Source of the DNA: Minisyncoccota bacterium
Lineage (GTDB): Bacteria > Patescibacteriota > Minisyncoccia > Phycocordibacterales > UBA9973
DNA length: 64,000 nucleotides
Assembly (NCBI GenBank): GCA_041662525.1
Contig: JBAZSF010000001.1
Span: forward strand, 41,383-105,382
Direction: 5' to 3'
Both the position numbers and the translations under genes were made by a program. The notes beneath the pieces were generated by a model, which did no database searches, was not told where the DNA came from, and worked only from the letters and a program-made list of their open reading frames with translations. Shown one piece after another: positions 1,870 to 49,681 of this stretch; the first letter of the stretch is position 1; each line of letters starts with the position of its first letter.

Positions 1870-2955
1870 ATGCATGATTTAGCTTTGTATCGTAAATATA
1901 GACCTAAAACTTTTGATGAAGTTTTAGGTCAAGACCATATTGTGAAAGTACTAGAAAGCTCTATAGAAACAGATAAAGTTTCTCATGCGTATCTTTTTGT
2001 CGGTTCACGTGGTACTGGTAAGACTTCTGTGGCTAGGATTTTTGCGACCAGTATTGGAGTATCTGTAAATGATCTTTATGAAATAGATGCAGCTTCTAAT
2101 AGGGGGATAGAGGATATGAAGGAATTACGTGATGGTGTGCGGGTATTACCTTTTGATTCAAAATATAAAATTTACATCATAGACGAGGTACACATGCTTT
2201 CCAAGGATGCTTGGGGTGCATTATTGAAAACTTTAGAAGAACCACCCAAACATGTTATTTTTATTTTAGCTACGACCGAACTTCACAAGGTTCCTGAAAC
2301 AATTATTTCTCGTTGTCAGGTTTTTACCTTTAAAAAAGCTTCTGAAGCAGTATGTAGGAAAATGTTGCTCGACGTCGCAAAGTCCGAAGGATTTGAATTA
2401 GACACTGGGGGTGCAGAACTTTTAGCTATTTTAGCTGATGGATCATTTAGAGATGCATTAGGAGAATTACAGAAAATTCTCAACTTTATAGGTAGAGATA
2501 AAAAAACCCGCCTAGACCCGCTTCGACGCGAGGCGAGCTCGGCGAGGCTGGTAAAAAGAGAAGATGTAGAAAAAATAACTGGCGCGCCGAAAACAACTCT
2601 GGTGAATGATTTTATTTCTGCGATTGCAGAGAAAAATTTAGAGAAAGGAATATCTACTGTACGAATTGCTTCAGAAATGAATTTAGATATGAAATTATAT
2701 TTCAAACTTATAATTCAAAAATTACGTATGGCGATAATTTTACGCTATGCACCTAAATTAGAAAAGGAGATGACAGGGAATTTAGGAGAGCCGGATTTAG
2801 AATTTTTGAAAGAATTAATTAAAAAAGACAAAGAGGGAATGCTCCGCTCAGGAACATTGGCTATCCTTTTGGAAGCTTATCAAGATATGGACAATGCATT
2901 TGTCACCGAATTACCGTTAGAACTTGCTTTAGTGGAGATAATAAATAAAGAGTAA
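1870..2955 (+). CDS. dnaX: DNA polymerase III subunit gamma/tau (short form)
   Basis: N-terminus YRPKTFDEVLGQDHIV...LFVGSRGTGKTS (Walker A) and DEVHMLS box are classic DnaX. Confidence 0.9.
   Translation: MHDLALYRKYRPKTFDEVLGQDHIVKVLESSIETDKVSHAYLFVGSRGTGKTSVARIFATSIGVSVNDLYEIDAASNRGIEDMKELRDGVRVLPFDSKYKIYIIDEVHMLSKDAWGALLKTLEEPPKHVIFILATTELHKVPETIISRCQVFTFKKASEAVCRKMLLDVAKSEGFELDTGGAELLAILADGSFRDALGELQKILNFIGRDKKTRLDPLRREASSARLVKREDVEKITGAPKTTLVNDFISAIAEKNLEKGISTVRIASEMNLDMKLYFKLIIQKLRMAIILRYAPKLEKEMTGNLGEPDLEFLKELIKKDKEGMLRSGTLAILLEAYQDMDNAFVTELPLELALVEIINKE
2506..2552. repeat. GC-rich palindromic element inserted in frame in dnaX
   Basis: 47-nt segment cccgcctagacccgcttcgacgcgaggcgagctcggcgaggctgg sits in otherwise ~30% GC coding sequence and encodes TRLDPLRREASSARLV. 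It shares AAACCCGCCT(A/C)GA and TCGACGCGAGGCG with the guaA element at 26404. Confidence 0.6.
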
Positions 2956-5407: not shown

Positions 5408-5509
5408 TGAAAGACGAAGGCTATAAAAATACTTTCCCTCACATTCGTTCGGGACCTTCGTCACTAATATTCGGGCCGAAGGCCCTGAGGAGCCTTAAGG
5501 CGACGAAGG
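5408..5509. other. GC-rich structured region 3' of tRNA-Gln (minus strand): nested hairpins including GGGCC-UUCG-GCCC and three copies of the complementary 8-mers GACGAAGG/CCTTCGTC
   Basis: gacgaagg at 5411, ccttcgtc at ~5447, gacgaagg at ~5502, gggccgaaggccc at ~5470. On the minus strand this is followed by a T-run, so it probably acts as the tRNA terminator. Confidence 0.4.
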
Positions 5510-5581
5510 GCTGGGAGACTAGGAATCGAACCTAGATTAAAGGCTTCAAAGGCCTCTGTCCTACCGTTAGACGATCTCCCA
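5510..5581 (-). tRNA. tRNA-Gln (anticodon UUG)
   Basis: Reverse complement folds as a cloverleaf: acceptor TGGGAGA/TCTCCCA, D-arm GTC-TAACGGTAG-GAC, anticodon stem GAGGC/GCCTT with loop CTTTGAA (UUG), T-arm CTAGG-TTCGATT-CCTAG, discriminator G. Confidence 0.8.
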
Positions 5582-5597
5582 ATGTTTACGTTTTGAT

Positions 5598-5840
5598 CTA
5601 ATTAAACAGTTTTTTAAGAAATTTTCTTCCAGAAGCTGATTTTAAATACTTTTCACGCTTTCTGGCTTCTTTTAGACTATCATATTTTTCATTATATATC
5701 ATTGTCCAAGGACAATGACGTTTTGTGTAAAAACTCTTTCCAGAATTATGTTCTGCTAACCTACGATTTAAATTGTTTGTTATACCTACATAACTTTTCA
5801 AGGAAACTGTACTTTTTAATATATAAAGAAAATAATTCAT
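5598..5840 (-). CDS. GIY-YIG nuclease family protein (UPF0213/YhbQ-like)
   Basis: YILKS...YVGITNNLNRRLAEHN is the GIY-YIG motif; 80 aa. Confidence 0.8.
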   Translation of the reverse strand: MNYFLYILKSTVSLKSYVGITNNLNRRLAEHNSGKSFYTKRHCPWTMIYNEKYDSLKEARKREKYLKSASGRKFLKKLFN

Positions 5841-5854
5841 TACATAGAGTATTA

Positions 5855-5896
5855 GACGACCTGCCTCGCCTTGATGCGAGTCAAGGCGGGTCTCCC
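5855..5896. repeat. GC-rich hairpin (CGCCTTGA-tgcgag-TCAAGGCG core), a member of the GC-rich palindrome family
   Basis: gacgacctgcctcgccttgatgcgagtcaaggcgggtctccc lies in the AT-rich promoter region between the GIY-YIG and ogt genes. Confidence 0.5.
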
Positions 5897-8308: not shown

Positions 8309-9523
8309 ATGGAAAATAATGATTATAATATATGGCTTGAAGGAATAGAACGCGTAAAATATCCGCGAGATGTTTTGCCTGATGAGATAGAGACTTTAAT
8401 CGTGGGCGGAGGTATTACTGGAATAACTTGCGCATATTTACTGGCCAAAGATGGAAGACAAGTAGTTTTACTAGAAAAAAGAAAATTGGGAGAATGGATA
8501 ACCTACTGCACTACAGGTTTTTTGACGCAAGTGATAGACACAGATCCAGTTAGATTAATAAAATTATTCGGGGAAGAAAAAGCTCGTCTCATTTTCGCCT
8601 CACATCTAGAGGCCATAAATAATATAGAGAATATAATAAAATCTGAAATGATTGAATGCGAATTTAAACGTTGCAGTGATTATGTTTATGCCAACAGTAA
8701 AAAAGAAGAGAAAAAGCTTATAAAAATGGCAGAAACCTTCAAAAAGTTGAACGTAAAATGCGAATATAAAAAAGATAATAATTTAAACTTCTCCAAGTTT
8801 GGTTATATTGAAATGCCCAACCAGGCAAAATTTCACGTGATGAAATATCTAACTGCTTTGGCTAAAATAGCGAACGAACATGGCGCGATAATAGCTGAAG
8901 ACACAGAAGTTTTGAGCTTAAATGATAAAAAGGATTTTGTGGAGGTTGTAGTAAAAGATGTCGGAACCATAAAAGCCCGAAAAGTTTTTTCAGCCACCCA
9001 TAACCCTTTTGGGAAGCCATCTCATCTAATACATAAAATAAATACATATCGCACCTATGTTCTAGAATATAATATTCCGGTAAATTCTATTGTTGAGGCC
9101 ACCTATGAGGACAGTTTAAAACCATATCATTATTTTAGAATTGACCCGAAAAATGGTTTTGATAGAATGATTATCGGCGGTGCAGATCACTTAAATGTGA
9201 TTCAGATGAACAGGGAATTAAATTTCGAGACAATGAGAAATTATGTAAAAGAAATATTCAGAAAGACGTTTGAATATTCAGGCCTTGAAGAGATGCGCCA
9301 TTGGTCCGGAGTTATATTAGAGCCAGTCGATGGAATTGCTTTTCTAGGGGAATTAAAAGATAGTAATATTTTCCAAGCTTTTGCTTTTTCAGGAAATGGG
9401 ATGACTTATAGTTACATCGCTAGTAAAATCTTTTTTGATAAACTAACTTCACAAAAAAATATTTATACAGAAATTTATGATATCAAACGTAAAATTTCAT
9501 GGAGAGCAAATATCTTTGGTTAA
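8309..9523 (+). CDS. FAD-dependent oxidoreductase (DAO / glycine-oxidase-like family)
   Basis: N-terminal dinucleotide fold LIVGGGITGITCAYLLAKDGRQVVLLEK; ~400 aa. Confidence 0.7.
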   Translation: MENNDYNIWLEGIERVKYPRDVLPDEIETLIVGGGITGITCAYLLAKDGRQVVLLEKRKLGEWITYCTTGFLTQVIDTDPVRLIKLFGEEKARLIFASHLEAINNIENIIKSEMIECEFKRCSDYVYANSKKEEKKLIKMAETFKKLNVKCEYKKDNNLNFSKFGYIEMPNQAKFHVMKYLTALAKIANEHGAIIAEDTEVLSLNDKKDFVEVVVKDVGTIKARKVFSATHNPFGKPSHLIHKINTYRTYVLEYNIPVNSIVEATYEDSLKPYHYFRIDPKNGFDRMIIGGADHLNVIQMNRELNFETMRNYVKEIFRKTFEYSGLEEMRHWSGVILEPVDGIAFLGELKDSNIFQAFAFSGNGMTYSYIASKIFFDKLTSQKNIYTEIYDIKRKISWRANIFG

Positions 9524-9540
9524 AATTACGAAACTTGTTG

Positions 9541-9825
9541 CAGGCGTACTTTTTAGAAAGCCTTGCGCAGGCGGACGCGCCGAGCAGTTCGCTGGCGAAG
9601 CTTCGCCAGATAGATTGCTTTATAAAAAGTTATGCCAAGAAAGAGTTTCGTAATTAGATCTGAATTAAGAAACATAAACTTTTCTTCGGTACAGATTTTT
9701 TGAAGCTTAAAAAATCCTGCACGCCCCGCCAAAGGCGAGGCTCCGCCCAAAGGCGGGCCGAGGGAAGTTCTCGGCTCGACAGCCTACGAAACCCCGCAAA
9801 AAGTTATGTTTCTTAATTCAGGATG
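9541..9825. repeat. composite GC-rich structured element: 18-bp perfect palindrome (9592-9609), 18-bp terminal inverted repeats CTGAATTAAGAAACATAA (9660-9677 / 9804-9821) enclosing GC-rich hairpins, and direct repeat AAAAAGTTATG (9624 / 9798)
   Basis: ctggcgaagcttcgccag is a perfect palindrome. gatctgaattaagaaacataa and its reverse complement (ttatgtttcttaattcagga) flank a core containing ccgcccaaaggcgg and ccgagggaagttctcgg hairpins. The local GC content is far above the genome background. Confidence 0.55.
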
Positions 9826-9838
9826 TTATACTTAAAAA

Positions 9839-10927
9839 ATGTTTTTCATAGACCCCATTCGTAATTTTTATGGCAGGTTTGAACGGCCCATTTCATCTAT
9901 ATCCCTTGTTGGGGGTTTCGTTTTTGATGCTCTCACGCTCAAGCGCTTGGATACCCTTTGGGAGAATTTATGGGTTTTAGGTCACCTTCTTATTGTTGGA
10001 ATTTTTATTACTTTAATTCATCTGCACGAAAACGAAGTTGGTGGTGAAAAAAATCCTCAAAAAGCGCATTTCTGGTATGTGAATATTTTACAGTTTTTCT
10101 TTGGGGGAATTCTCTCGACTTATTTAGTTTTCTATTTTCGTAGTGCCGATATCTTTGTCACTTGGCCTTTTATTGTTCTCCTTGTTGGTGCTTTTATCGC
10201 CAATGAATCTTTAAAACGACATTACATCAGGCTTAGTTTTCAAATAAGCTTATTTTTTCTTTCGATTTACTCATTTGCCATTTTTTTAGTACCTGTAATT
10301 TTACACAAGATTGGCACCTGGGTATTTCTACTTTCAGGATTTCTTAGTTTAATTTTTATTGTCCTATTTCTTAAAATCTTATTTCACTTTATCAAAGATA
10401 AATTTAAAGAGAGTAAAAGATTGATAATTTCTTTAATTTTGGGGATTTTTATTTTAATTAATTTTCTATATTTTACCAATTTAATTCCTCCGATTCCTTT
10501 GTCTTTAAAAGATGCGGGGATGTATCACTCAATCCAAAAAAATACAGAAGGGAACTACGATATTACTTTTGAAGATTATGGCTGGAAAGGATACTTCAAT
10601 TTATATCCAGGATTTAAACAAGTTTCTGGAGAGCCCGTTTATGCTTTTAGCGCTATTTTCTCTCCAAAAAAACTAAACCTCACAATCATTCACGAATGGC
10701 AACATTATGATGAAAATGAAAAGAACTGGGTGACTGAAAGAATAATAAATCTACCCGTCATAGGCGGGCGAGATGGTGGTTTCCGTACTTATTCTATGCG
10801 TTACAACTTAGCCCTAGGAAAATGGAGGGTAAATGTAAAAACCCAACAAGGTCAAACTATTGGGGTTTTAAGATTTAAAATTATAGAAGCAGATACAGAA
10901 CCTATGCTTACTGCTGGGGTAAAATAG
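9839..10927 (+). CDS. polytopic membrane protein with extracytoplasmic C-terminal domain, function unknown
   Basis: 362 aa; ~6 TM helices in the first 220 aa, then a soluble domain. Confidence 0.5.
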   Translation: MFFIDPIRNFYGRFERPISSISLVGGFVFDALTLKRLDTLWENLWVLGHLLIVGIFITLIHLHENEVGGEKNPQKAHFWYVNILQFFFGGILSTYLVFYFRSADIFVTWPFIVLLVGAFIANESLKRHYIRLSFQISLFFLSIYSFAIFLVPVILHKIGTWVFLLSGFLSLIFIVLFLKILFHFIKDKFKESKRLIISLILGIFILINFLYFTNLIPPIPLSLKDAGMYHSIQKNTEGNYDITFEDYGWKGYFNLYPGFKQVSGEPVYAFSAIFSPKKLNLTIIHEWQHYDENEKNWVTERIINLPVIGGRDGGFRTYSMRYNLALGKWRVNVKTQQGQTIGVLRFKIIEADTEPMLTAGVK

Positions 10928-13979: not shown

Positions 13980-16967
13980 ATGATTTCCCGAATATATGTA
14001 GCGTCCAAAGGAAAAGCTGACTTTATTAACTCTTACTTAATTTCCCATAAGTTGGGGAATGACAAAATCCTGAAAATCGCGGAAGCTCTAACAAACCCTA
14101 TCCTTGAAGAATTTTCTATAAATAAATTCCCAGCGACAGCTAAATTTTCTTATGCCATAGAAATAGGTTTCAAGCCAGGAGTCACAGACAATGTCGGGCA
14201 TACTGTGGAGGAAACTATTATGGACTTATTGCATATTGCTCCGGACGTTGGACGTCGGGGATTCGGACGTCCAACGTCCGGAGCTGATTTAGCAGTTTAT
14301 ACTTCTAAAATTTATTTAGTTTCTAATTCTAAAACAGAAGAGGTTGAGAAGATAGCTCTCTCGCTACATAATCCTCTGATTGAGCGTTCACATATCATAA
14401 GTATTTCTGATTTAAAAAAGAAAGGTTTACCATTAGAAGTTCCTAAAGTCATTTTGAAAAAGGCTACCCCAGTCATAAATGTCTCTCTTGATGTATCTGA
14501 CGAAGAACTTATAAAAATCGGTAGTGGAGGAATAATGGATGATAAGACAAAAGAAAGACGCGGTCCTTTGGCTCTTGATTTAGCGTCAATGAAAGTAATC
14601 CAAGAACATTTCAAAAAATTGAAAAGGGAGCCGACTGATATTGAGCTAGAATCTTTGGCACAAACTTGGTCTGAGCATTGCAAACATACTATTTTTGCAA
14701 ATCCTATCGATGACATCAAAGACGGTTTATATAAAACATATATAAAAGGCGCAACGAATTTAATTCGCAAACAAAAAGGAGCAAAAGATTTTTGTGTTTC
14801 TGTATTTAGTGATAATTCTGGAGGAATTATTTTTGATAAGGATTATTTAATTACTCATAAAGTAGAAACACACAATAGTCCTTCAGCTCTAGATCCATTT
14901 GGTGGAGCCATCACTGGCATCGTAGGTGTAAACCGGGACACAATAGGCTTCGGACTAGGCGCTAAACCGGTAGCTAATCTTTATGGTTTTTGCTTCGGTA
15001 ACCCTGAAGATAAAAGATCACTCTTTCGTGATAAAAATCTAACTCAAAAAATGCTTTCACCGAAAAGAATTATGGAGGGTGTAGTAAAAGGAATAAATGT
15101 TGGTGGAAATTGTTCTGGTATACCGACTCTTTCTGGTTTCGTTCGTTATGATGATAGATATAGAGGAAAGCCTTTGGTTTTTGCTGGTACGGTAGGGTTG
15201 ATTCCAAGAAATTTACCAGCCTCACCGAGTCTAGGCGGGCCCACCTTGGAAGGAAAAAAAAGGCTTTCACATCTCAAAAAAGCGCAAAACGGAGATTATG
15301 TCGTAGTTGTCGGAGGGAGAGTAGGTCTAGATGGTATTCATGGGGCGACTTTTTCTTCAGTGGTGATGGATTCAAGTTCTCCGGCGACTGCAGTGCAAAT
15401 CGGTGACCCAATAACTCAGAAAAAATTAAGTGATGCATTAATCAAAGAAGCGCGAGATCTGAATTTATATAACAGCATCACAGACAATGGCGCTGGAGGA
15501 ATTTCTTGTTCAGTTGCTGAAATGGCAAAAGAATGTGGCGGTGCAAAAGTTTCTTTAGAAAAAGTTCCATTAAAATACCCCGATCTTCGTCCATGGGAAA
15601 TTTGGATTTCAGAATCACAGGAACGTATGACTTTATCTGTGCCAAAGAAAAAATGGAATTTATTTAAAGAATTAATGGAAAAGAGAGGAGTAGAAGCTAC
15701 TATCATTGGAGAATTCACAAATTCTGGTAAATGTATTGTGGAATATTCTAATAAAAAAATCATGGATATTCCTATGGATTTTTTGCATGATGGTTTGCCG
15801 GAACAGCATTTATATACAAAACCCATTCAATTCACCTCTCCCCAAACCCCTCTCCATTATTTAGATAATGGAGAGGGGAAAGCAAGGGGTGAGGATTATA
15901 CGAAAGCCTTAGAAAAATTACTCGGTAGTAAAAATATCAGTGGATTTTCTTTTATTTCAGAGCAGTATGATCACGAAGTTCAAGGATCTTCTGTTTTAAA
16001 ACCACTCTCTGGACGAGGTCGTATCAATACCGATGCACAAGTTTTTCAGCCTGTTTTAAATTCAAACAAAGGAGTCATTCTATCTTCGAGCACTTATCCT
16101 TCATATGGAGACATTAGTACTTATCATATGGCCGCCTGCGCTATCGATAATGCTATTAGAAATACTCTTTGCGCTGGTGGAACACTTACACACTTAGCAA
16201 TTTTGGACAATTTCTGCTGGTGTTCATCCTATGATCAAACACGTTTAGCACAGCTCGTAGATTCAGTAAAAGCTTGTTACGACTATGCCGTCGGTTATGG
16301 AACACCCTTTATTTCTGGTAAGGATAGTATGTTTAATGACTTTAGGGGTTACGATAGTGACGGTAACCATGTGACTGTTTCTATCCCACCGACACTTCTT
16401 ATTTCAACGATTAGTGTTATGCCCGATTTAAATAAAACTGTTTCTCCAGAATTTAAAAATATAGGTGATATAATTTATTTATTAGGAGAAACAAATGATG
16501 AACTCGGAGGAGGAGAATATCTTAAAATGCTTGGAGCTATTGGCAACATTGTGCCCAAAGTAAATTTAAAAAAGAATATCAAAACTTATCGCGCCCTAGA
16601 AAAAGCAATTCAAAAAGAATTAATAGTTTCGGCAATGTCTGTTAATTCTGGCGGGCTGGCTATAGCACTCGCCAAAGCATGCGTAGGAGGAATGGTTGGA
16701 TGTAATGTTTCCCTTGACCCCATAGGCAAGATCTATGGGGTAGATGTAAAACTTTTCTCTGAAAGTCAGGGAAGGATTTTAGTTTCTGTAAATCCTAAAA
16801 ATATTTTAGGATTTGAAAAATTAATGAAGAATATTTTTTATGCCAAGTTGGGCAAAGTGGCCAAAGATAGTAAATTTGTTATTACGGATGGAAATAAAAA
16901 GATAATTGAAACAAGTGTAAAAAAATTGCACGATGCTTATCATAAATTTTCTAACTCACAAAAATGA
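13980..16967 (+). CDS. purL: phosphoribosylformylglycinamidine synthase subunit PurL with ~180-aa N-terminal (PurS-like) extension
   Basis: REPTDIELESLAQTWSEHCKHTIF and THNSPSALDPFGGAITGIVGVNRD motifs. The FGAM-synthetase core starts at about residue 215. No glutaminase domain (a separate purQ follows). Confidence 0.9.
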   Translation: MISRIYVASKGKADFINSYLISHKLGNDKILKIAEALTNPILEEFSINKFPATAKFSYAIEIGFKPGVTDNVGHTVEETIMDLLHIAPDVGRRGFGRPTSGADLAVYTSKIYLVSNSKTEEVEKIALSLHNPLIERSHIISISDLKKKGLPLEVPKVILKKATPVINVSLDVSDEELIKIGSGGIMDDKTKERRGPLALDLASMKVIQEHFKKLKREPTDIELESLAQTWSEHCKHTIFANPIDDIKDGLYKTYIKGATNLIRKQKGAKDFCVSVFSDNSGGIIFDKDYLITHKVETHNSPSALDPFGGAITGIVGVNRDTIGFGLGAKPVANLYGFCFGNPEDKRSLFRDKNLTQKMLSPKRIMEGVVKGINVGGNCSGIPTLSGFVRYDDRYRGKPLVFAGTVGLIPRNLPASPSLGGPTLEGKKRLSHLKKAQNGDYVVVVGGRVGLDGIHGATFSSVVMDSSSPATAVQIGDPITQKKLSDALIKEARDLNLYNSITDNGAGGISCSVAEMAKECGGAKVSLEKVPLKYPDLRPWEIWISESQERMTLSVPKKKWNLFKELMEKRGVEATIIGEFTNSGKCIVEYSNKKIMDIPMDFLHDGLPEQHLYTKPIQFTSPQTPLHYLDNGEGKARGEDYTKALEKLLGSKNISGFSFISEQYDHEVQGSSVLKPLSGRGRINTDAQVFQPVLNSNKGVILSSSTYPSYGDISTYHMAACAIDNAIRNTLCAGGTLTHLAILDNFCWCSSYDQTRLAQLVDSVKACYDYAVGYGTPFISGKDSMFNDFRGYDSDGNHVTVSIPPTLLISTISVMPDLNKTVSPEFKNIGDIIYLLGETNDELGGGEYLKMLGAIGNIVPKVNLKKNIKTYRALEKAIQKELIVSAMSVNSGGLAIALAKACVGGMVGCNVSLDPIGKIYGVDVKLFSESQGRILVSVNPKNILGFEKLMKNIFYAKLGKVAKDSKFVITDGNKKIIETSVKKLHDAYHKFSNSQK
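14238..14284. repeat. 47-nt perfect GC-rich palindrome inserted in frame in purL
   Basis: gctccggacgttggacgtc-ggggattcg-gacgtccaacgtccggagc has a 19-bp perfect stem and encodes APDVGRRGFGRPTSGA within the N-terminal domain. Confidence 0.7.
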
Positions 16968-18748
16968 AAACAGAAACTAAACCACATTCGACAGGCTCAG
17001 TGTCTACAACCTGCCAAAACTGTAAAGAAGACTTCGTTATTGAACCGGAGGATTTTAATTTCTACGAAAAAATGAAAGTTCCAGCTCCGACTTTTTGCCC
17101 TCTTTGTCGAGCAGAGAGGAGGTTTGCTTTTAGAAACGAACGTAAACTTTTTAAGGTAAAAGATACTTTTACTGGTAAAGAAATTTTTTCATTATACCCA
17201 GAAGAAAGTGGCAGAAAAATTATTACTCAAGAAGAGTGGTATGGGGATGGCTGGGATGCGATGGAATATGCCCGCGAATATGATTTTTCTCGACCGTTTT
17301 TCGAGCAATTTTTTGAACTTCAAAGAGAAGTGCCTATTTACAATCTAAATGTACAAAGAATGATTAATAGTCCATATTCTGGAAACGCTACAGCGTTAAA
17401 AAACTGTTACCTCTGTTTTCATTCTAATTATACTGAAGATAGTATGTATGGCAGTGCGAATGATCATTGCAAAGATTGCGTGGATAATTCTCACATTCAA
17501 TATTCAGAACGATGTTATGAATGTTTTTGGTTAGAAAAATGTTATCAATGTTATTTTTCTATAATGTGTGGAGAATCACACAATCTTTTTTTATGTCGTA
17601 ATTGTTTAGGATGCAATGATTGTTTTGGCTGCGCAAATTTACGCAAATCCTCTTACTGTATTTTCAATAAGCAATATTCTAAAGAAAATTATTTTAAAGA
17701 AATAGAAAGTATGAAATTGAATACTATTTTCGGCTTAAAAAAAATGCGAGGTAAAGCTAGAGCCTTTTGGTTAACTCAGCCAACAAAATCTCAACATGGT
17801 CTTAAAAATTTAAATTCAACAGGTTCTCATGTTACACATTGTAAAAATGTGAATGATAGTTTTTTGATCAGAGGAAGTGAAAATATGCGTTACTGCCAAC
17901 ATATGCAAGTACCTGCGAATAAAGATTGCTATGATGTTTCTAATTGGGGAGAAAATACAGAACTTTCTTATGAGACTTTAGTGTGTGGTGAAAATGCCTA
18001 CAACATGAAATTTAGTTTCAATTGCTGGCCGACATGCACGGACAGTGAATACTGCATGGATCTCTTTAGTTGCTCAGATTGTTTTGGCTGTGTGGGTTTA
18101 AAGAAAAAACAATATTGTATTTTCAATAAACAATATACTAAAGAAGAATACTATCAGATAATAGAAAAAATTAAAAAACAAATGGATGATATTCCTTATA
18201 CTGACAAGCAAGGTCTTATTTATAAGTACGGAGAATTTTTCCCAATAGAATTTTCTCAGTCTGGATATAATAATACTGTCGCAATTCAACATTTCCCACT
18301 TACGAAAACAGAAGCAGAAAAAAAGGGATACCTATGGGTAGAAGCGCCCCAGAGTGAATATAGAATTACTATTAAATCATCCGAACTTCCGAATTCTATT
18401 CCTGAAGAAAATGAAATTTTAAAAGAAATTATAGAATGCGAGAATTGTAAAAAAGCTTATCGGATAATGGAAAATGAATTAATTTTTTTGCGTAAAGAAA
18501 ATCTGCCTCTGCCTGATTTGTGTCATGATTGCAGATATGATAGAAGAATAAAGGATAGACTATCGATCAGATCGTATGACCAATCTTGCATGTGCGGAGG
18601 AACTTTAGACGAAACTGGAATTTATAAAAATACCGTTAAACATCTCCATGCAGATGAACCGTGCGGAGAGAAATTTAAAACTGGACACGCTCCAGAAAAT
18701 AAAGAGATAGTTTATTGTGAAAAATGTTATCAACAAGAAGTTTACTAG
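16964..18748 (+). CDS. cysteine-rich multi-zinc-ribbon-like protein of unknown function (594 aa); paralog of 47951..49681
   Basis: ATGA start/stop overlap with purL. About 50 Cys arranged mostly as CxxC pairs. N- and C-terminal C-x2-C...CP-x-CR ribbons; two internal ~170-aa repeats ending YCIFNKQY(S/T)KEEY; CRNCLGCNDCFGC run. Confidence 0.75.
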   Translation: MKTETKPHSTGSVSTTCQNCKEDFVIEPEDFNFYEKMKVPAPTFCPLCRAERRFAFRNERKLFKVKDTFTGKEIFSLYPEESGRKIITQEEWYGDGWDAMEYAREYDFSRPFFEQFFELQREVPIYNLNVQRMINSPYSGNATALKNCYLCFHSNYTEDSMYGSANDHCKDCVDNSHIQYSERCYECFWLEKCYQCYFSIMCGESHNLFLCRNCLGCNDCFGCANLRKSSYCIFNKQYSKENYFKEIESMKLNTIFGLKKMRGKARAFWLTQPTKSQHGLKNLNSTGSHVTHCKNVNDSFLIRGSENMRYCQHMQVPANKDCYDVSNWGENTELSYETLVCGENAYNMKFSFNCWPTCTDSEYCMDLFSCSDCFGCVGLKKKQYCIFNKQYTKEEYYQIIEKIKKQMDDIPYTDKQGLIYKYGEFFPIEFSQSGYNNTVAIQHFPLTKTEAEKKGYLWVEAPQSEYRITIKSSELPNSIPEENEILKEIIECENCKKAYRIMENELIFLRKENLPLPDLCHDCRYDRRIKDRLSIRSYDQSCMCGGTLDETGIYKNTVKHLHADEPCGEKFKTGHAPENKEIVYCEKCYQQEVY

Positions 18749-18795
18749 CGTCGCGCTTTGATGGACGATTGCGCGACATGATTTCGTAAAATCAA
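18749..18795. repeat. conserved hairpin element GTCGCGC-(14)-GCGCGAC + CATGATTTCGTAAAATCAA immediately 5' of the purQ ATG; homolog at 33583
   Basis: Near-identical 45-nt element also precedes mrdA, with a compensatory T-A to C-G change in the stem. Confidence 0.65.
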
Positions 18796-25746: not shown

Positions 25747-27321
25747 TACCATATTATGAATGATATACAAATACTTGTTGTGGACTATGGGTCGCAATAT
25801 ACACTAGTTATCGGCAGAACTCTACGCGAGCTTGGTGTGCGAAGCATAATATTACCTCCAAATAAAGCAGACCAGTGGCTAAAAAATAATACTCCAAAGG
25901 CAGTTATCCTCTCTGGTAGTAATTGGAGCGTACACAACGAAGGAGCACCAAGTATTCCTCAGGCACTCGATACTACTGGTAGAAAATATTTAATTTTAGG
26001 AATTTGTTATGGTATGCAACTTCTAGCGCACAAGAATGGTGGCAAAGTAGAACGACCACTCGATCATCGTGAATATGGACCAGCCATGGTTACCTTAAAC
26101 ACCTTGCATCCGCTTTTTAAGGGAATTTCTAAAAAAACCCAAGTCTGGGCAAGTCACGGGGATACTGTAACCAAGCTTCCAAAAGATTTTGTTTCCATAG
26201 CTACGTCCGGCGGAAATGCTGCCATGAGCGACAAAACTAATAGTGTTCTAGGAATTCAATTTCATCCAGAAGTTGTGGACACCAATGAAGGTAAAAAAAT
26301 ATTACAGAATTTTTTGAATATGGCTAATTGTAAAAAAGATTGGAATCCCATAAATTTGATTCACGAAATTCAAAAAGAAGTTTTAGAAATTGTAGGAGAA
26401 AAACCCGCCTCGACTCGCGGAGGCTCGTCGACGCGAGGCGGGGATAAAGTTATTTTAGGAGTTTCAGGCGGAGTGGATTCTACTACTTTAGCTGCTGTCT
26501 TGGCTCCAGTCTTAGGGAGTAGGCTCGTTTGTGTGGCTATAGACACTGGAGGATTAAGACAAAATGAATTAGTAGAATTAAAAAATAATAGTAAAAACGC
26601 TGGCATAAAAAATCTTATAATAATTTCTGCTGAAACTGAATTTATAAAAAATATTGAAAAAACTATTGACGGAGAAGAGAAGAGAGCAAAATTTCGTACT
26701 GTTTATAAAAAAATATTTGAAGAACAAATAAAAAAAACGGGTGCAAAGTTTATAGTGCAAGGTACTTTGGCAACAGATATCATTGAAAGCGGTAAAGCAG
26801 GAGAGTCAGCCATGATAAAAACTCACCACAACGTAGGCCTTAACTGGAAAGTAGAGGATTTACATCCTTTTCGCAACTTATTTAAATATGAAGTTCGAGA
26901 ACTTGCTCGTGCACTCAAACTTCCAAAAGCTATCTCTGAGCGGAATCCTTTTCCAGGTCCTGGTTTATTTTTAAGAATTGTTGGTACACCGGTCTCAAAA
27001 GAAAAACTGGACCTCGTACGAGAAGCAGACAAAACCGTAGCGAATATATTAAAAAAATATGATGTTGCTAAAGACATTTCCCAACTCATCGTCGCCCTTC
27101 TCGGTGTCAATTCTGTCGGCGTAAAAGGTGATGAACGGGTTTATGGTCACTCCTTGGCTATCCGTGCCGTACAAACAGTAGATTTTATGACAGCTAAAGG
27201 TTATTATTTTTCGGAAGAAATTATAAATGAAATCACCAACTCTCTCACAAAACACAAAAACATAGTTCGTGTATTTTTTGATATGACTCCAAAACCTCCG
27301 GCCACAACAGAGTTTGAGTAA
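25747..27321 (+). CDS. guaA: GMP synthase (glutamine-hydrolysing)
   Basis: ILVVDYGSQYT GATase start, SGGVDSTTLA PP-loop. Start chosen at Met 25747 rather than the ORF-track 25666, which would overlap guaB. Confidence 0.9.
   Translation, partial: YHIMNDIQILVVDYGSQYTLVIGRTLRELGVRSIILPPNKADQWLKNNTPKAVILSGSNWSVHNEGAPSIPQALDTTGRKYLILGICYGMQLLAHKNGGKVERPLDHREYGPAMVTLNTLHPLFKGISKKTQVWASHGDTVTKLPKDFVSIATSGGNAAMSDKTNSVLGIQFHPEVVDTNEGKKILQNFLNMANCKKDWNPINLIHEIQKEVLEIVGEKPASTRGGSSTRGGDKVILGVSGGVDSTTLAAVLAPVLGSRLVCVAIDTGGLRQNELVELKNNSKNAGIKNLIIISAETEFIKNIEKTIDGEEKRAKFRTVYKKIFEEQIKKTGAKFIVQGTLATDIIESGKAGESAMIKTHHNVGLNWKVEDLHPFRNLFKYEVRELARALKLPKAISERNPFPGPGLFLRIVGTPVSKEKLDLVREADKTVANILKKYDVAKDISQLIVALLGVNSVGVKGDERVYGHSLAIRAVQTVDFMTAKGYYFSEEIINEITNSLTKHKNIVRVFFDMTPKPPATTEFE
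26404..26442. repeat. GC-rich palindromic element inserted in frame in guaA
   Basis: cccgcctcg-actcgcggaggctcgtcgacg-cgaggcggg (9-bp outer stem) encoding KPASTRGGSSTRGGDK. It lies between the GATase and ATP-PPase domains and is related to the dnaX element. Confidence 0.65.
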
Positions 27322-33320: not shown

Positions 33321-33593
33321 ATGGTATACCGTATATTAGCTTCCGTTTTACTTTTATTTTCAATACTTTTTATGCCTTTATGGGTGTCAGCTATTTTGGC
33401 ACTTGGAGGTATGGTTTATTTTAATATTTTTTGGGAAGCAGTCCCGCTATTTCTTTTGTCAGACTTACTTTATGGGGTAAAAGAAATAAAATTTAATAAT
33501 ATAATTTTTATTTCTTTTATTGCATCAATTATTATCCTAATAATCATAGAAATTATAAAAAAGAAACTTAAATTTTACCCAAGCCGCGCTTAA
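33321..33593 (+). CDS. small membrane protein, unknown
   Basis: 90 aa with 3 hydrophobic helices. Confidence 0.35.
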   Translation: MVYRILASVLLLFSILFMPLWVSAILALGGMVYFNIFWEAVPLFLLSDLLYGVKEIKFNNIIFISFIASIIILIIIEIIKKKLKFYPSRA

Positions 33594-33628
33594 AGGACGA
33601 TTGCGCGGCATGATTTCGCTAAATCAAC
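33583..33628. repeat. conserved hairpin element GCCGCGC-(13)-GCGCGGC + CATGATTTCGCTAAATCAA immediately 5' of the mrdA ATG; homolog of 18749
   Basis: Left arm overlaps the last codons and stop of the upstream ORF; the 3' tail is identical to the purQ copy apart from 2 nt. Confidence 0.65.
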
Positions 33629-40176: not shown

Positions 40177-41478
40177 TTATTTAAACATACTTGAATTCGT
40201 TGGTGGTAAATAATACATCGGGTCAAGATAAGCATTTATAGGTGCTAAGGGTTGAGTCAATGATTTTCCAGGGCAAGACTTGCTAGGAAGGTTCTTTACT
40301 TCGGCTGCATTAGGAGCATAAACAGACACATGCAAATGTGGACCTGTGGAATAACCTGTATTGCCACTATAAGCCACTACTGTGCCTCTCTCTACTCTTT
40401 CCCCCACTCTCGCTTTAACTAAAGACAAATGCCCAAAAGCACCAGAAAGACCATTATCATATTTAATAAAAACAAATTTTCCAAAAGAAGCACCCGGGCA
40501 TTGAACATCAGTATCTCCTACGCCAGCCACAATACCAGAAGCCATAGCTTTAACCGGTGTACCTACTGAGGCGCGAAAATCTACTCCACCATGAGAGCCA
40601 GATACATAAAGTCTTTTGGAATCCACTGTTTTGCCAAAAAGTTGAGTTATCAATACGTAATCAAGTGGCCAAGAAAATACTCCGGCATCAGGTAATTTCG
40701 AGGGATCTAAAATATATTTTAATTGAGATTCATAATCTCGAAGCTCTTTTTCAATTGCATTCTTTTGGGCAAGTCTATCTTTTAAAAGTTTTTGATAATT
40801 AGCTTCATTATTTTTTGTTTGTGATAAAAGTTTATTCTTTTCTTTTGTATTTTGCGCCACTATTTTTTGCTGATCAGAAAGTTGTATTTTGAGTTTTGAA
40901 AGTTCATTTTTTGTATCGATAGTCACCTTCCTTGTATCCTCTAAAACACCTTTTGTCTGTTTTAGTATAATTATATCTGCCCTCATTCTTTCACGAACAG
41001 TAATTATGTTATCTACATCATCCCAAACCACAGCTAAATCATTATTGGATAATATGTTTTCTATTAAACTGGTCTGCTCAATTTCATTCATGTTTTCAAT
41101 TTCAAGTTTAATAGATTCTATGTTATTTGTTATAGAATCTTCTTTATTGTTTATATCTGAACTTAAATTTTGTATTGTAAAATTTGTTTTATCGATTTTT
41201 TTTTGAGTAATAGTGATGTCTGCATCTAATTTTTTTTTAGTTAAATCAAGCGCTTTCAAAGAACCATTTAAGGAACTTTTTTGTTGCCCTAAACTATTAA
41301 GCTGTACTTGATAGTTAGCTATTTCTTTTTCTAATTGTAGAATATCAGCATTTTTTTGACTTATTTGGTTTTGAATTTCAGTAGCTGTTTGCGCATAAGA
41401 AAAAGCAAAAGGAGCTAAAAGCAAAATTATTAACAACAGTGTACTAAGCTGCTTTTTGTAATCGTGATATGGTTTCAT
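40177..41478 (-). CDS. M23 family metallopeptidase with N-terminal coiled-coil (EnvC/NlpD-like)
   Basis: Long coiled-coil then LytM motifs HGGVDF...GHLS...GNTGYSTGPHLH. Confidence 0.8.
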   Translation of the reverse strand: MKPYHDYKKQLSTLLLIILLLAPFAFSYAQTATEIQNQISQKNADILQLEKEIANYQVQLNSLGQQKSSLNGSLKALDLTKKKLDADITITQKKIDKTNFTIQNLSSDINNKEDSITNNIESIKLEIENMNEIEQTSLIENILSNNDLAVVWDDVDNIITVRERMRADIIILKQTKGVLEDTRKVTIDTKNELSKLKIQLSDQQKIVAQNTKEKNKLLSQTKNNEANYQKLLKDRLAQKNAIEKELRDYESQLKYILDPSKLPDAGVFSWPLDYVLITQLFGKTVDSKRLYVSGSHGGVDFRASVGTPVKAMASGIVAGVGDTDVQCPGASFGKFVFIKYDNGLSGAFGHLSLVKARVGERVERGTVVAYSGNTGYSTGPHLHVSVYAPNAAEVKNLPSKSCPGKSLTQPLAPINAYLDPMYYLPPTNSSMFK

Positions 41479-42889
41479 TTTTTCCTAAAATTTCCGCTAT
41501 GATAAATGGATCTGGTGATTTATCTAATCCTGACAAGGCAAAACGCACAGGGTGCAATAACTCTCCCCTGCTGTCTAATTTATCGGCTATTAACATTAAA
41601 GCATTTTTAATATTTTCTATTTTAAAATCTTTTTCAGTCAATCCGTCTAGCGTTTTTATTGCTAGCTGTAAATTTTCAGATATTTTTTCAGGCGAAGTAT
41701 TTTTAAAAATTAGTTTTTCTTTAGGGTAACTTGGCTGTTTAAAGAATAAATCTAGCTCCCCTCTCGTAGCCATGTCTTTTACATCCCCCCATTTTGAAAT
41801 TCGTTCTAAAATAATAGGAACGAGTTTTGGATTACGCATTTCTTTAGGTAGCCATTCTAGAATATTTTTTTCTACTTCATCGTAAGAAAGTAATTTTATA
41901 TGCTCTTTATTTAGCCAATTTAATTTATCATCACTCCATTGCGCTCCAGAACGCTGAATTTTAGTTAGATCAAAGATATTAATTAATTCTTCTCTTGTAT
42001 ACACTTCTTTTTCTCCACCTGGATTAAAACCAAGAAATGCTAAATAATTTATCATTGCATCAGGTAAATATCCTTCTTTTTCATAATCTAAAACATCTTT
42101 CGCGCCGTCACGTTTGCCGAGTTTTTTGTTTCCATCCGCACCCATTATCGGAGGAGTCGTCACGAAATATGGAGGGGTAACACCGAGTGCTTCATAAACA
42201 GACAAAAACTTCGGGGTTGAAGATATAAATTCTTGTCCTCGTACCACATGAGTCACCTTCATTTCTATGTCATCCACAATATGCGCGAAGTTGTACGTAG
42301 GATATCCATCGCTTTTTATTAAAATAAAATCATCTAATGCTTCTGGTCCAGCAGAGAGCTCTCCCCATACAATATCATTCCAAATTGTTTGTTTTAGTTC
42401 TACTACCTTGAATCGAAGTGGCGTAGACCCATCCCACACAGATGGATTTTCTGGCCCGCCTAGACTCGCACTAGTCGAGGCTGGTCTATGCTCTCGATAC
42501 AAAAATGGTTTTTTATCCGCCTCAGCTTCTTGCCTAAATTTTCCTATTTCCTCTTCTGTATAAGGATCTGCATATGCCAAGCCTTTTTTTATTAAAATTT
42601 CAGCATATTTTTTATATAATTCTAATCTCTCTGATTGAATATAAGGCGCACAAGGTCCACCGATATCTGGTCCTTGATCCCAATTCAAACCAAGCCATTT
42701 TAATGATTTTTGAATATGCTCTATAGAGCCTGCCACTTCCCTTTCCTTATCAGTGTCCTCGATTCGTAAGATAAATTGACCATTGTTTTTTCTAGCCAAA
42801 AGCCACGCATAAAGCGCAGTTCTTACTCCCCCCACATGCATAAAACCTGTCGGGCTAGGCGCAAATCTTGTTACTACTTTCTTTTCCAT
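41444..42889 (-). CDS. gltX: glutamate--tRNA ligase
   Basis: VVTRFAPSPTGFMHVGGVRTALYAW (HIGH region). Confidence 0.9.
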   Translation of the reverse strand: MEKKVVTRFAPSPTGFMHVGGVRTALYAWLLARKNNGQFILRIEDTDKEREVAGSIEHIQKSLKWLGLNWDQGPDIGGPCAPYIQSERLELYKKYAEILIKKGLAYADPYTEEEIGKFRQEAEADKKPFLYREHRPASTSASLGGPENPSVWDGSTPLRFKVVELKQTIWNDIVWGELSAGPEALDDFILIKSDGYPTYNFAHIVDDIEMKVTHVVRGQEFISSTPKFLSVYEALGVTPPYFVTTPPIMGADGNKKLGKRDGAKDVLDYEKEGYLPDAMINYLAFLGFNPGGEKEVYTREELINIFDLTKIQRSGAQWSDDKLNWLNKEHIKLLSYDEVEKNILEWLPKEMRNPKLVPIILERISKWGDVKDMATRGELDLFFKQPSYPKEKLIFKNTSPEKISENLQLAIKTLDGLTEKDFKIENIKNALMLIADKLDSRGELLHPVRFALSGLDKSPDPFIIAEILGKNETISRLQKAA

Positions 42890-47950: not shown

Positions 47951-49681
47951 TTAATAAACTTCTTGTTGGTAACACTTCTCGCAATAAACAATCTCTGGCC
48001 TTTCTGGGGCATAACTGGTCTCAAATTCTACTTCACATTTTTTGGTGCCGTGCGTATGATTTTCTTTATTGCACATACACTCTCTGCGCCAGAGTTTGCT
48101 GGGTCCTCTATTTTTAAAACGTTTAAGATGACGGCACTCAGGACAGTTACGTGGTATTGGTATTTGCATTCTTTTATAAAAAGCTAACTCATCTACAATA
48201 ACTCGATAATTTTTATTGCATTCCATGCATGCAAAAACCTCCTTATTTACATCAAAATCAGAAGATAATTCTAAAATGGAATCTGGGAAAGTTTTCCAAT
48301 CAATAGTTTCCTTGCCATATGTCCCACGCGGAGTATCTTCCCATTTGAAACCCTGCGCTAATGCTTCTTCTTTTGTTAGTGGAAATTCGTCCATAACCGA
48401 AGACTCATTATAGCCAAACGGAGATAATTCTTTTGGAAAAAAATCTCCGTAAATCCCCTCTTGTTTCATTTTTTCTACAATTTCTGCTTGGAGTTTTTCA
48501 TATTCTTCTTTAGAATACTGTTTATTTAAAATACAATAAGAACCTTTTATTAAACCAACACATCCAAAACAATTATTAGAATTCGGGCAATTTAAACAAT
48601 ATTCCATAAATTGTGAGCCCCAGCAATATTGAGAGCAAGTAACATTTGATGCTTCAAGCCCGGTATTTAGAGTATTATAAATCAATTCTGCCGTGCGCCC
48701 TGCAGTATTGCAATCCATACAATCTTTTGCCCCGCGCCAAACATGCATGGAATAAGCATTGTCTTCTGCGTCATAAGAATGAAAACACTGACGATTATTT
48801 TTGACGTTCGTCATATAATTTCCCGTAGAATTTACGGCATTAAAAATTTCAGCAAATTTTCTAGGTTTGTCTTTTATAAAATTTTGAAATTCTTTTTTAA
48901 AATTTTTCATACCCGAATGTGTGTCTAATTTAAAAGATTTTAATTTATTTTCATATTCTTCTTTGGTGTATGGTTCATCAAAAATACAATACTTTTGTCC
49001 CCGTAAATTTATACAACCCAAACAATTTGAGCAATTTCGGCAATCAAGAAGAAAGGAACTGTCAAGACAGCTATGGCATCCTTTGGAAAATCGTAAATTA
49101 TTACAGTCATAACAATCATCAACTTCGTACGATAGTTCTACTTTATTCGTAAAAGAACAATCGACTAGATCTTTTGAAAGCTGAATCCAATAACAATTGA
49201 TGCAATTCTCATTATTTGAGCTTTCTATGATCACATAACAGTTTTTATTATCAGCCGTATAATTTAAGTAATAACAATTTACATTTCTTAAGCCAGTCAA
49301 AGCTGGTTTTGGAACTTTTTTCCAAAGTTCACTAAACTGCTTAAAGAAAGATTCATTAGAATTATAATTTTGAGCATATTTATTAGCATTTAGGTCATCA
49401 CCATACCAACAATTAGAACACCAACTAGGGTAAGTTTTATTTGGACTAAAAATTGAAATTGTATCTTTTTTACAATTATCACAAATACGCTTGTAAAAAC
49501 ATCTTTCATTTTTAAAACAAAGTCGAAGTTGCATTCGACATTCTGGACAATTTTTAGGTGGCAATACTCCAATCTTTTCATAAAATCCAAAATCATCCGG
49601 CTCAATCGTGAAGTTTTTTTGACAACTTTGGCAAGTAGTAGGCACTGAGTCTTGCGAATGTGTTTTAGTTTGTACTTCCAT
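47951..49681 (-). CDS. cysteine-rich multi-zinc-ribbon-like protein of unknown function (576 aa); paralog of 16964..18748
   Basis: Same architecture as 16964..18748 and an identical C-terminal EIVYCEKCYQQEVY; 17-nt overlap with scpB. Confidence 0.75.
   Translation of the reverse strand: MEVQTKTHSQDSVPTTCQSCQKNFTIEPDDFGFYEKIGVLPPKNCPECRMQLRLCFKNERCFYKRICDNCKKDTISIFSPNKTYPSWCSNCWYGDDLNANKYAQNYNSNESFFKQFSELWKKVPKPALTGLRNVNCYYLNYTADNKNCYVIIESSNNENCINCYWIQLSKDLVDCSFTNKVELSYEVDDCYDCNNLRFSKGCHSCLDSSFLLDCRNCSNCLGCINLRGQKYCIFDEPYTKEEYENKLKSFKLDTHSGMKNFKKEFQNFIKDKPRKFAEIFNAVNSTGNYMTNVKNNRQCFHSYDAEDNAYSMHVWRGAKDCMDCNTAGRTAELIYNTLNTGLEASNVTCSQYCWGSQFMEYCLNCPNSNNCFGCVGLIKGSYCILNKQYSKEEYEKLQAEIVEKMKQEGIYGDFFPKELSPFGYNESSVMDEFPLTKEEALAQGFKWEDTPRGTYGKETIDWKTFPDSILELSSDFDVNKEVFACMECNKNYRVIVDELAFYKRMQIPIPRNCPECRHLKRFKNRGPSKLWRRECMCNKENHTHGTKKCEVEFETSYAPERPEIVYCEKCYQQEVY

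Follow-up and report, generated by a model that had tools for sequence, protein, structure and literature searches.

The closest described parallels to the sequences studied here were the Rickettsia palindromic elements (RPEs), which are arranged in families RPE-1 to RPE-10 (Ogata et al. 2000, 2002, via PMC10969869). Two further groups of short bacterial repeats invited comparison. Repetitive extragenic palindromes (REPs) are described as extragenic sequences with a GTAG or CGTC head (PMC3733652). Bacterial miniature transposable elements with inverted repeats (MITEs), such as Correia, ERIC, Nezha and others, are short, have inverted ends and lack autonomy, and they occasionally become fused in frame to open reading frames (ORFs) (PMC10969869). 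Here we analysed a 64-kb stretch of a Minisyncoccota bacterium (contig JBAZSF010000001.1, positions 41,383 to 105,382; hereafter the window), which had a GC content of 34% and contained related GC-rich repeats inserted in frame in dnaX and guaA. The proteins nearest to the DnaX and GuaA of the window came from sources labelled Candidatus Paceibacterota, Nomurabacteria or Parcubacteria, which placed the genome in the Patescibacteria. We propose that these repeats, designated family 1, were probably short, non-autonomous, selfish, RPE-like elements that persisted only where the peptide they encoded was tolerated.

The core of family 1 was a 24-nt GC-rich near-palindrome, CCCGCCTWGACTCGGCGAGGCWGG, and variants of 27-45 nt differed from it by a longer loop, by an additional arm or by copies nested within them. 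The purL, gltX and intergenic copies were picked out by reading other GC-rich islands for the same ends, and the pattern CCCGCCTNGAC..GAGGCWSG gave five matches in the window against 0.00 expected, namely in dnaX, purL, guaA, gltX and one intergenic region (Table 1). The pattern was absent from 1.01 Mb of control loci and from 86 kb of the closest relatives. The control consisted of 71 non-Patescibacteria loci returned by a DnaX-based contig scan (generic AAA+ matches), and the same scan supplied the close relatives L006 and L013. Therefore, a lineage-specific expansion was indicated. An extra 4.5 kb of the same genome held no additional family-1 copy. At the gathering threshold, an Rfam scan of the whole window reported the tRNA-Gln only, and the element matched no curated RNA family.

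The initial annotation had already described the dnaX and guaA inserts as related palindromes that shared a core. The start words it gave were correct (AAACCCGCCTAGA at 2504-2516 and AAACCCGCCTCGA at 26401-26413), and the shared 13-mer TCGACGCGAGGCG occurred exactly twice in the window, at 2523-2535 and 26428-26440 (two matches in 0 of 100 shuffles). However, this 13-mer was not the family core but the extra 3' arm of the C-variant (CCCGCCTCGAC...GTCGACGCGAGGCGGG), further cases of which were seen in L007, L211 and L214. In guaA it was the appended arm, and in dnaX it lay within the nested 21-nt piece. Similarly, the term palindromic was appropriate for guaA but not for dnaX, whose copy had a folding z of about -0.5 to +0.3. 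The guaA copy was made of the 24-mer CCCGCCTCGACTCGCGGAGGCTCG and a 15-nt second arm, TCGACGCGAGGCGGG, which together gave a perfect outer stem of 9 bp (CCCGCCTCG/CGAGGCGGG; folding z about -3, at about -15 kcal/mol). The inserted peptides were as annotated and the frame was kept in both genes: TRLDPLRREASSARL(V) in DnaX and (K)PASTRGGSSTRGG(DK) in GuaA.

Ortholog alignments of DnaX and GuaA demonstrated that the inserted residues were not ancestral. In L001, the closest relative (88-90% amino acid identity), the guaA site was empty, with GAGAAA joined directly to GAAAAA at the point where the window had an additional 39 nt. Moreover, two solved GuaA structures lacked 14 residues exactly at the insert site, and in an alignment of 120 homologs the five nearest insert-free relatives read ...IVG-EKEKVILGVSGGVDS. 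For DnaX the common insert-free state was LNFSKSKKIKRED. At the nucleotide level, L204 had an empty dnaX site (AAAAAAA joined directly to TAAAAAG), L013 had an intermediate state with an exact 24-nt insert, CCCGCCTAGACTCGGCGAGGCTGG, at the very same point, and the window had the L013-type 24-mer with a further 21 nt (CCGCTTCGACGCGAGGCGAGC) nested after CCTAGAC. When filled and empty alleles were compared, a target-site duplication was absent at both the dnaX and the guaA sites.

In AlphaFold2 (AF2) models, both inserts were predicted to occupy linker coils between well-predicted domains. The GuaA model (mean predicted local distance difference test score, pLDDT, of 75) contained one low-confidence coil at residues 217-227 (pLDDT <50), located after helix 198-213 and before the first ATP-pyrophosphatase strand. 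The DnaX model (mean pLDDT 80) had a low-confidence coil at residues 212-223 (pLDDT <50) at the junction of the lid domain and domain III.

The initial annotation had expected further copies elsewhere, and this proved correct beyond the window. Scanning metagenomes with the pattern CCCGCCTNGACYCGN{2,9}GAGGCWSGT, we found at least 124 copies on at least 118 contigs with a GC content of 28-58%, except, among the matches listed, for one contig at 72% GC that resembled a chance match. Taxonomic names were at hand for a few of these contigs only, which overlapped named Paceibacterota assemblies. A phage vector was unsupported since a scan of viral contigs with the family pattern gave 0 matches. Among the matches listed, 64 of the 124 copies were well inside long ORFs, including those of GAPDH, RNase J, GatA, P-type ATPases, RpoB, RpoC, topoisomerase I (TopA), RNase R, GltX, UvrD, TsaD, MnmA and PheT. 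The same matches provided the following frame and length statistics. The length was divisible by three in 59 of 63 ORF copies (94%) as compared with 42 of 60 copies outside ORFs (70%; Fisher p=8e-4), and the prevailing sizes, 24 and 30 nt, were both multiples of three. All stop-free frames in both orientations were used in ORFs, and the two TAG-containing frames of the A-variant never were. The frame encoding PASPSQGG or PASPSLGG accounted for 31 of the 63 ORF copies (T-variant chi-square p=3e-9), and the orientation opposite to the gene was preferred 46:17. Therefore, the statistics pointed to insertion at the DNA level followed by selection on the translated peptide and disfavoured removal at the RNA level. 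Thus, a dispersed RPE-like family of in-frame GC-rich palindromic repeats, as the initial annotation had suggested, was supported by the copies, by the empty sites in orthologs and by the in-frame copies in ORFs.

The flanks of the metagenome copies contained no target-site duplication, their statistics matching those of a shuffled control, and no consensus except for a G at position -1. Palindromy of the flanks, which would suggest insertion into hairpin loops, was only a weak trend among non-ORF copies (5% vs 2%). Some copies were nested (dnaX, L209, L215 and L216) and others were arranged in tandem (L134, L092 and L180). Variants of 28-39 nt folded at -6 to -15 kcal/mol. Positions 8 and 22 of the element were linked, being always A..T or T..A (122 of 123 among the matches listed). 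Base-pair covariation was considered for this linkage and rejected, because minimum free energy folds paired the two positions inconsistently and two subfamilies explained the two states equally well.

The purL copy was absent from the purL of L004. L171, a syntenic relative, likewise had a copy at the gltX site, and its loop was a different one. In a comparison of GltX with the PDB, the insert fell within a variable region where the alignment was gap-free, so that its status as an insertion was judged only by family membership and by L171. The initial annotation had also mentioned a purL palindrome. It was present, but as one of three GC-rich palindromic inserts in that gene, and only the middle one was, like those in dnaX and guaA, a member of family 1. 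The arms of the other two recurred in L171, L204, L002 and L006, and L004 had a shorter, different palindrome at the first of these sites. Additionally, the purine genes of close relatives contained unrelated perfect or near-perfect in-frame palindromes (L004:12161-12211 in purH; L002:2401-2421 and 2725-2751), and one of these was 51 nt long (GCCAAAGATGCCCTTTGACAT/ATGTCAAAGGGCATCTTTGGC). Since such unrelated palindromes were found in L004 and L002, in-frame palindromes were not confined to family 1. Therefore, together with the purL inserts, they indicated that several families coexisted, as in Rickettsia (PMC10969869).

The same linker sites were occupied by different palindromes in other lineages. 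Namely, the GuaA linker site contained the unrelated GC-rich palindromes KPARRGG, KPARNA..SVAGG and TSPQPSPDRRGRKGEV, and the DnaX linker site contained HPSLRPPLDKGRVGVGS and KKTPNQSKLGTGQV, again unrelated. On a DnaX tree with the site masked (a single-protein neighbour-joining tree of low resolution), nine family-1 carriers were scattered beside insert-free sequences or sequences with inserts of other families.

The only intergenic copy in the window was part of a module that included a small GIY-YIG nuclease gene and a tRNA-Gln. The nuclease ORF matched Pfam PF01541 over profile positions 2-74 of 78 (E=2e-16). On the minus strand, the order was TTGGGAGA (5898-5891), the hairpin, TCGTCTAA (5859-5852), 11 nt, the GIY-YIG ORF, 17 nt and the intact tRNA-Gln. 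The flanks of the hairpin matched the start of the tRNA-Gln, so that the tRNA's first 16 nt were present a second time, with the hairpin inserted after position 8 and before position 9. The layout was also present in L141, L134 (with three tandem hairpins) and L176 (at another tRNA); a decayed module was seen in L179, L198 and L007, and a diverged copy in L094. Because these loci had been found via the hairpin, we also selected six loci by homology to the GIY-YIG protein (63-82% identity), blind to hairpins. All six (L206, L209, L211, L214, L215 and L216) had the module. Their pseudo-5'-tRNA-Gln fragments, of 16-38 nt, matched the adjacent tRNA and carried either one family-1 hairpin or two, which split them between positions 8 and 9, 11 and 12 or 19 and 20. 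The GIY-YIG gene and the intact tRNA-Gln followed, often with a second GIY-YIG gene behind them. The module often adjoined dnaX. In the relatives L204, L013 and L006 the tRNA-Gln had no cassette, and the contig of the closest relative (L204/L001) had 0 family-1 copies in 43 kb. A Pfam search of 130 ORFs beside intergenic copies revealed no transposase or recombinase, and GIY-YIG was the top family with three matches. The small GIY-YIG nuclease at tRNA-Gln was the sole recurrent protein partner that we found. Another possible reading of the pseudo-fragment is that its disruption, by whichever hairpin is available, is harmless or advantageous, for instance because it shields the target of a homing endonuclease. 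Neither these elements nor the GIY-YIG/pseudo-tRNA-Gln module was described for Patescibacteria in the open-access literature that we searched, an absence that does not by itself prove novelty.

Several other observations concerned this locus. Directly 3' of the tRNA-Gln, at 5430-5505, there was a GC-rich hairpin cluster, CTTCGTCGCC...GGCGACGAAGG with GGGCCGAAGGCCC inside. The equivalent hairpin region in L206, L209, L211 and L214 preceded a second GIY-YIG gene that was missing in the window. The tRNA after the cassette in L176 (780-800) resembled a tRNA-His, left the tRNA sequence right after the anticodon loop and received no ARAGORN call. It may contain an intron, like the tRNAs that PMC13011429 describes in Patescibacteria. 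Most homologs of the small nuclease were located on very short contigs of 0.5-3 kb, as would be expected if repeats or polymorphism at these loci broke the assemblies.

Table 1. Features of the window (positions are those of the window; nt, nucleotides; aa, amino acids)
Feature	Position	Strand	Description
dnaX	1870..2955	+	short gamma/tau clamp-loader subunit, 361 aa; host gene
dnaX copy	2507..2551	+	45 nt, 15 codons, T213-L227; A-variant 24-mer (2507-2517 plus 2539-2551) with nested piece
dnaX nested piece	2518-2538	+	21 nt, C-variant-like, CCGCTTCGACGCGAGGCGAGC
tRNA-Gln(UUG), intact	5508..5582	-	starts TTGGGAGATCGTCTAA; first 16 nt duplicated upstream of GIY-YIG ORF
GIY-YIG ORF	5598..5840	-	stand-alone 80-aa nuclease; starts 19 nt downstream of intergenic copy
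intergenic copy	5860..5890	-	T-variant 31-mer CCCGCCTTGACTCGCATCAAGGCGAGGCAGG; between nt 8 and 9 of duplicated tRNA-Gln 5' fragment
purL	13980..16967	+	FGAM synthase subunit, 995 aa; hosts one copy of family 1 plus two palindromes from other families
purL palindrome, other family	14238-14284		in-frame, GC-rich, GCTCCGGACGTTGGACGTC...GACGTCCAACGTCCGGAGC
purL copy	15216..15239	-	A-variant 24-mer CCCGCCTAGACTCGGTGAGGCTGG (minus strand); gene-strand peptide PASPSLGG
purL palindrome, other family	about 15833-15895		in-frame, GC-rich, CACCTCTCCCCAAACCCCTCTCC...GGAGAGGGG..GGGGTGAGG
guaA	25756..27321	+	GMP synthase, 521 aa from ATG at 25756; host gene
guaA copy	26404..26442	+	39 nt, 13 codons, P217-G229; C-variant
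gltX	41444..42889	-	glutamyl-tRNA synthetase, 481 aa; host gene
gltX copy	42455..42484	+	A-variant 30-mer CCCGCCTAGACTCGCACTAGTCGAGGCTGG; gene on minus strand; peptide PASTSASLGG

Similar to the RPEs, family 1 consisted of palindromic repeats dispersed in a small, AT-rich, gene-dense genome, with a large share of the copies in frame in unrelated housekeeping genes. The encoded peptides were at positions compatible with the protein fold (here the linker coils of the AF2 models), several families coexisted and no transposase was known. However, family-1 copies were 24-45 nt long, as compared with roughly 100-150 bp for RPEs, and their host belonged to the Patescibacteria rather than to Rickettsia. 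Family 1 was also distinguished by its occurrence on contigs of very different GC content, by the use of all stop-free frames in both orientations, by recurrent hits at the same linker sites and by its link to the GIY-YIG/tRNA-Gln module. In-frame, fold-compatible insertion thus agreed with membership in the RPEs, and size and host did not. Homology of family 1 to the RPEs, judged by size only, was unlikely. The RPE-likeness suggested in the initial annotation therefore held as a functional resemblance, with differences in size, host and several defining features.

Family 1 also resembled REPs and the hairpin-forming REP doublets (REPINs) in being made of imperfect palindromes of 20-40 nt with conserved arms, in its tandem and inverted arrangements and in the possible presence of a single-copy nuclease gene flanked by the repeat. 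In contrast to REPs, the core CCCGCCTWGACTCGGCGAGGCWGG and its reverse complement had no GTAG or CGTC at their ends, and the copies were intragenic in about half of the metagenome matches listed (64/124) and in four of the five cases in the window. The gene next to family 1 encoded a GIY-YIG nuclease, whereas the REP-associated tyrosine transposases (RAYTs) are Y1 transposases of the IS200/IS605 type. A RAYT (Y1 HUH) domain was detected neither in the 130 ORFs adjoining intergenic copies nor in those parts of the window that were annotated. With MITEs, family 1 shared a non-autonomous nature, shortness, inverted ends and in-frame occurrence in ORFs, but it had no target-site duplication and was several-fold shorter. 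A search, not exhaustive, of about 1 Mb of Patescibacteria-like loci revealed no parent insertion sequence with matching ends.

Fungal mitochondria reportedly contain GC clusters, double-hairpin elements and 'byp' elements, as attributed to de Zamaroczy and Bernardi, Paquin et al. 2000 and Lang et al. 2014. These too are short GC-rich hairpins that invade AT-rich, gene-dense genomes, coding regions included, and form nested insertions. They are, however, organellar, and byps break the reading frame and are bypassed, whereas family-1 inserts keep it. With regard to the nuclease, SegB of phage T4 is described as a free-standing GIY-YIG homing endonuclease in a tRNA gene cluster (PMC2330249). The small GIY-YIG gene studied here was likewise located by tRNA genes and was polymorphic for presence or absence between relatives. 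Unlike SegB, its 80-aa product, known from sequence, comprised the catalytic domain only, and the gene was always accompanied by the hairpin-split 5' duplicate of tRNA-Gln. Thus, a GIY-YIG domain was present as in homing endonucleases, and a separate DNA-binding domain was not.

According to the reading that we prefer, family 1 would spread at the DNA level in Patescibacteria genomes. Its insertion would be precise and without target-site duplication, into coding DNA, non-coding DNA and other copies of the family. The copies that survive would be either intergenic or in frame and stop-free in surface loops and interdomain linkers, where they would be translated as short coils rich in Pro, Ala, Ser, Gly and Arg, such as the linker between the lid domain and domain III of DnaX and that between the GATase and ATP-pyrophosphatase domains of GuaA. 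Sizes of 24 and 30 nt, as multiples of three, would suit the element to gene-dense genomes. Genomes of this kind are estimated to be about 90% coding, so the persisting copies would be those that selection tolerates. This reading was built on family membership, insertion polymorphism, the filtering of frame and length, the loop location of the inserts, the lack of target-site duplications and the nested and tandem copies. From these we infer mobility itself, and also that the inserts are neutral to slightly deleterious. A number of points weighed against it. The DNA of this genome that was analysed amounted to the window and the extra 4.5 kb (~68 kb), and the copy number applies to that stretch. 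No transposase, recombinase or autonomous parent element was encountered in the window or beside intergenic copies. Translation of the inserts was deduced from the frame statistics. The bare 24-mer folded weakly (-3.5 kcal/mol, z about -0.3), and since it was unstable as a single-strand hairpin, the label of a hairpin element suits the longer variants only. Finally, in eight orthologous pairs the arms were identical at 176 of 176 positions, with changes in the loop only, and the 150-nt flanks were 63-83% identical. This was at odds with plain junk DNA because junk should drift. The arm conservation may be due to the sites being hit repeatedly, to gene conversion between copies or to selection on the sequence, for example for recognition by an enzyme.

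The arm conservation, set against flanks diverged by 17-37%, was also a reason to consider that the repeat might be useful to its host, as a site for a nucleoid or regulatory protein, as a DNA-uptake signal of naturally competent bacteria or as a hairpin in the mRNA that makes ribosomes pause where domains meet. Such a role would agree with the occurrence of the same 24-mer in contigs from 28% to 58% GC among the matches listed, with the existence of two or three 'dialects' (the A, T and C variants) and with the return of unrelated palindromes to the same interdomain linkers. Nevertheless, we consider it improbable. Close relatives did without the copies, their guaA, dnaX and purL sites being empty and their 86 kb containing none. 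The density in the window, ~1 per 13 kb, was far below that of known uptake sequences, which occur about once per kb, so the profile of uptake signal sequences (USS/DUS) did not apply. Moreover, the copies originated by insertion and not by point mutation, and their spread on the DnaX tree was patchy. A role specific to the mRNA strand was disfavoured because both orientations and all stop-free frames occurred in ORFs. It is much less probable still that the inserts are removed or bypassed at the level of RNA or the ribosome, like mitochondrial 'byp' elements or the gap in gene 60 of phage T4. GC-rich hairpins in AT-rich coding sequence do recall byps and mitochondrial GC clusters. However, filtering of frame and length would be needless if the sequence were skipped, and yet lengths divisible by three were enriched in ORFs, stop-containing frames were avoided and one benign peptide frame was strongly preferred, contrary to the profile of bypass elements. 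The element also had no matching take-off and landing codons.

An alternative that would leave the selfish-repeat reading intact, and supply a candidate enzyme for it, is that the hairpins are dispersed cis-partners of the stand-alone GIY-YIG nuclease, mobilised by it or captured during break repair. By analogy with the REPIN/RAYT partnership, but on a different nuclease fold, the hairpins and the 80-aa protein would form one system. A cassette with the nuclease gene would have duplicated the 5' part of tRNA-Gln, the duplicate always being broken by hairpins at one of the three points given above. Hairpins would then have been inserted genome-wide, essential genes included, at breaks made or processed by the nuclease, without target-site duplication. 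In favour of this idea, the single intergenic copy of the window was 19 nt upstream of the nuclease ORF and inside the duplicated tRNA-Gln fragment. The six blindly chosen loci and the intact, decayed and diverged modules of the other contigs repeated that arrangement, and the closest relative lacked the cassette and, in 43 kb, family-1 copies. The missing target-site duplication suits break repair or capture better than DDE transposition, and T4 SegB provides a precedent for a free-standing GIY-YIG homing endonuclease beside tRNA genes (PMC2330249). On the other hand, the protein has no DNA-binding domain and no known biochemical activity. The L013 genome carries family-1 copies, and yet the one tRNA-Gln examined in it has no cassette. 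Next to the nuclease, the window has a T-variant, but its dispersed copies belong to the A- and C-variants. If the pseudo-fragment is just a site where disruption is neutral or positively selected, then the link would be uninformative about mobilisation. We therefore regard a role of the nuclease in dispersal as a tentative and rather unlikely proposal, and the existence of a single hairpin-nuclease system as equally doubtful. The least credible explanation, to which we give hardly any weight, is that the segments were assembly chimeras or that the residues were ancestral and lost in relatives. Its sole point was the contrast in composition with the surrounding sequence. Assembly chimeras were excluded because an independently assembled contig of 30 kb from the European Nucleotide Archive (ENA; L205), covering the dnaX and intergenic copies, was identical to the window base for base over 13 kb (0 mismatches). 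Identical DnaX and GuaA proteins were on record from several sources. The element also occurred in many unrelated metagenomes from many studies, the segment was missing in the solved structures of GuaA and in most of the 120 aligned homologs, and the same sequence was found in unrelated genes in different frames.

The window contained some other structured or repeated sequences. At 9555-9800 there was a GC-rich, strongly structured intergenic stretch with GGCGAGGCT and CCGCCCAAAGGCGGG, whose GC-rich core was bracketed by a 17-19-nt inverted repeat (9660-9678 / 9803-9821). A permissive Rfam scan of 9450-9900 gave no match for it, and it could be a novel RNA or a pile-up of hairpin repeats. A 38-nt direct repeat, TTGATGGACGATTGCGCGACATGATTTCGTAAAATCAA, was found at 18758-18795 and 33590-33627 (87% identical), immediately upstream of ORFs starting at 18796 and 33629, and may be a shared regulatory or leader motif. 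The ORF at 16964-18748 had internal direct repeats (17615-18184 and 18672-18747) and an inverted similarity of 74-76% to the ORF at 47951-49681 (47952-48577). These two ORFs look like paralogs with repeated Cys-rich modules.

Overall, the interpretation in the initial annotation was supported as essentially right, and the kind of element, in-frame selfish palindromic repeats, was already known. What the present analysis added was the unexplained conservation of the arms and the reproducible association with a GIY-YIG cassette, which could make the mechanism of mobility testable. In-frame 'protein-coding palindromes' had hitherto been held to be a peculiarity of Rickettsia. The candidate phyla radiation shows the same outcome with an element that is five times shorter, which suggests that it generally follows when selfish repeats colonise tiny genomes that are gene-dense and AT-rich. 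The inserts account for many length differences and odd loops rich in Pro, Ala, Ser, Gly and Arg in Patescibacteria proteins. They are able to mislead alignments and phylogenies, and they flag permissive sites in essential enzymes. RPEs were described 25 years ago, and how they move is, to our knowledge, still unsolved. The strict conservation of the arms and the invariant module of pseudo-tRNA-Gln, hairpin and GIY-YIG nuclease provide a testable handle on the movement of such orphan repeats. If the hairpins and the nuclease did prove to be one system, then repeats would be dispersed by a new mechanism, one that would also supply proteins across Patescibacteria with in-frame loops.

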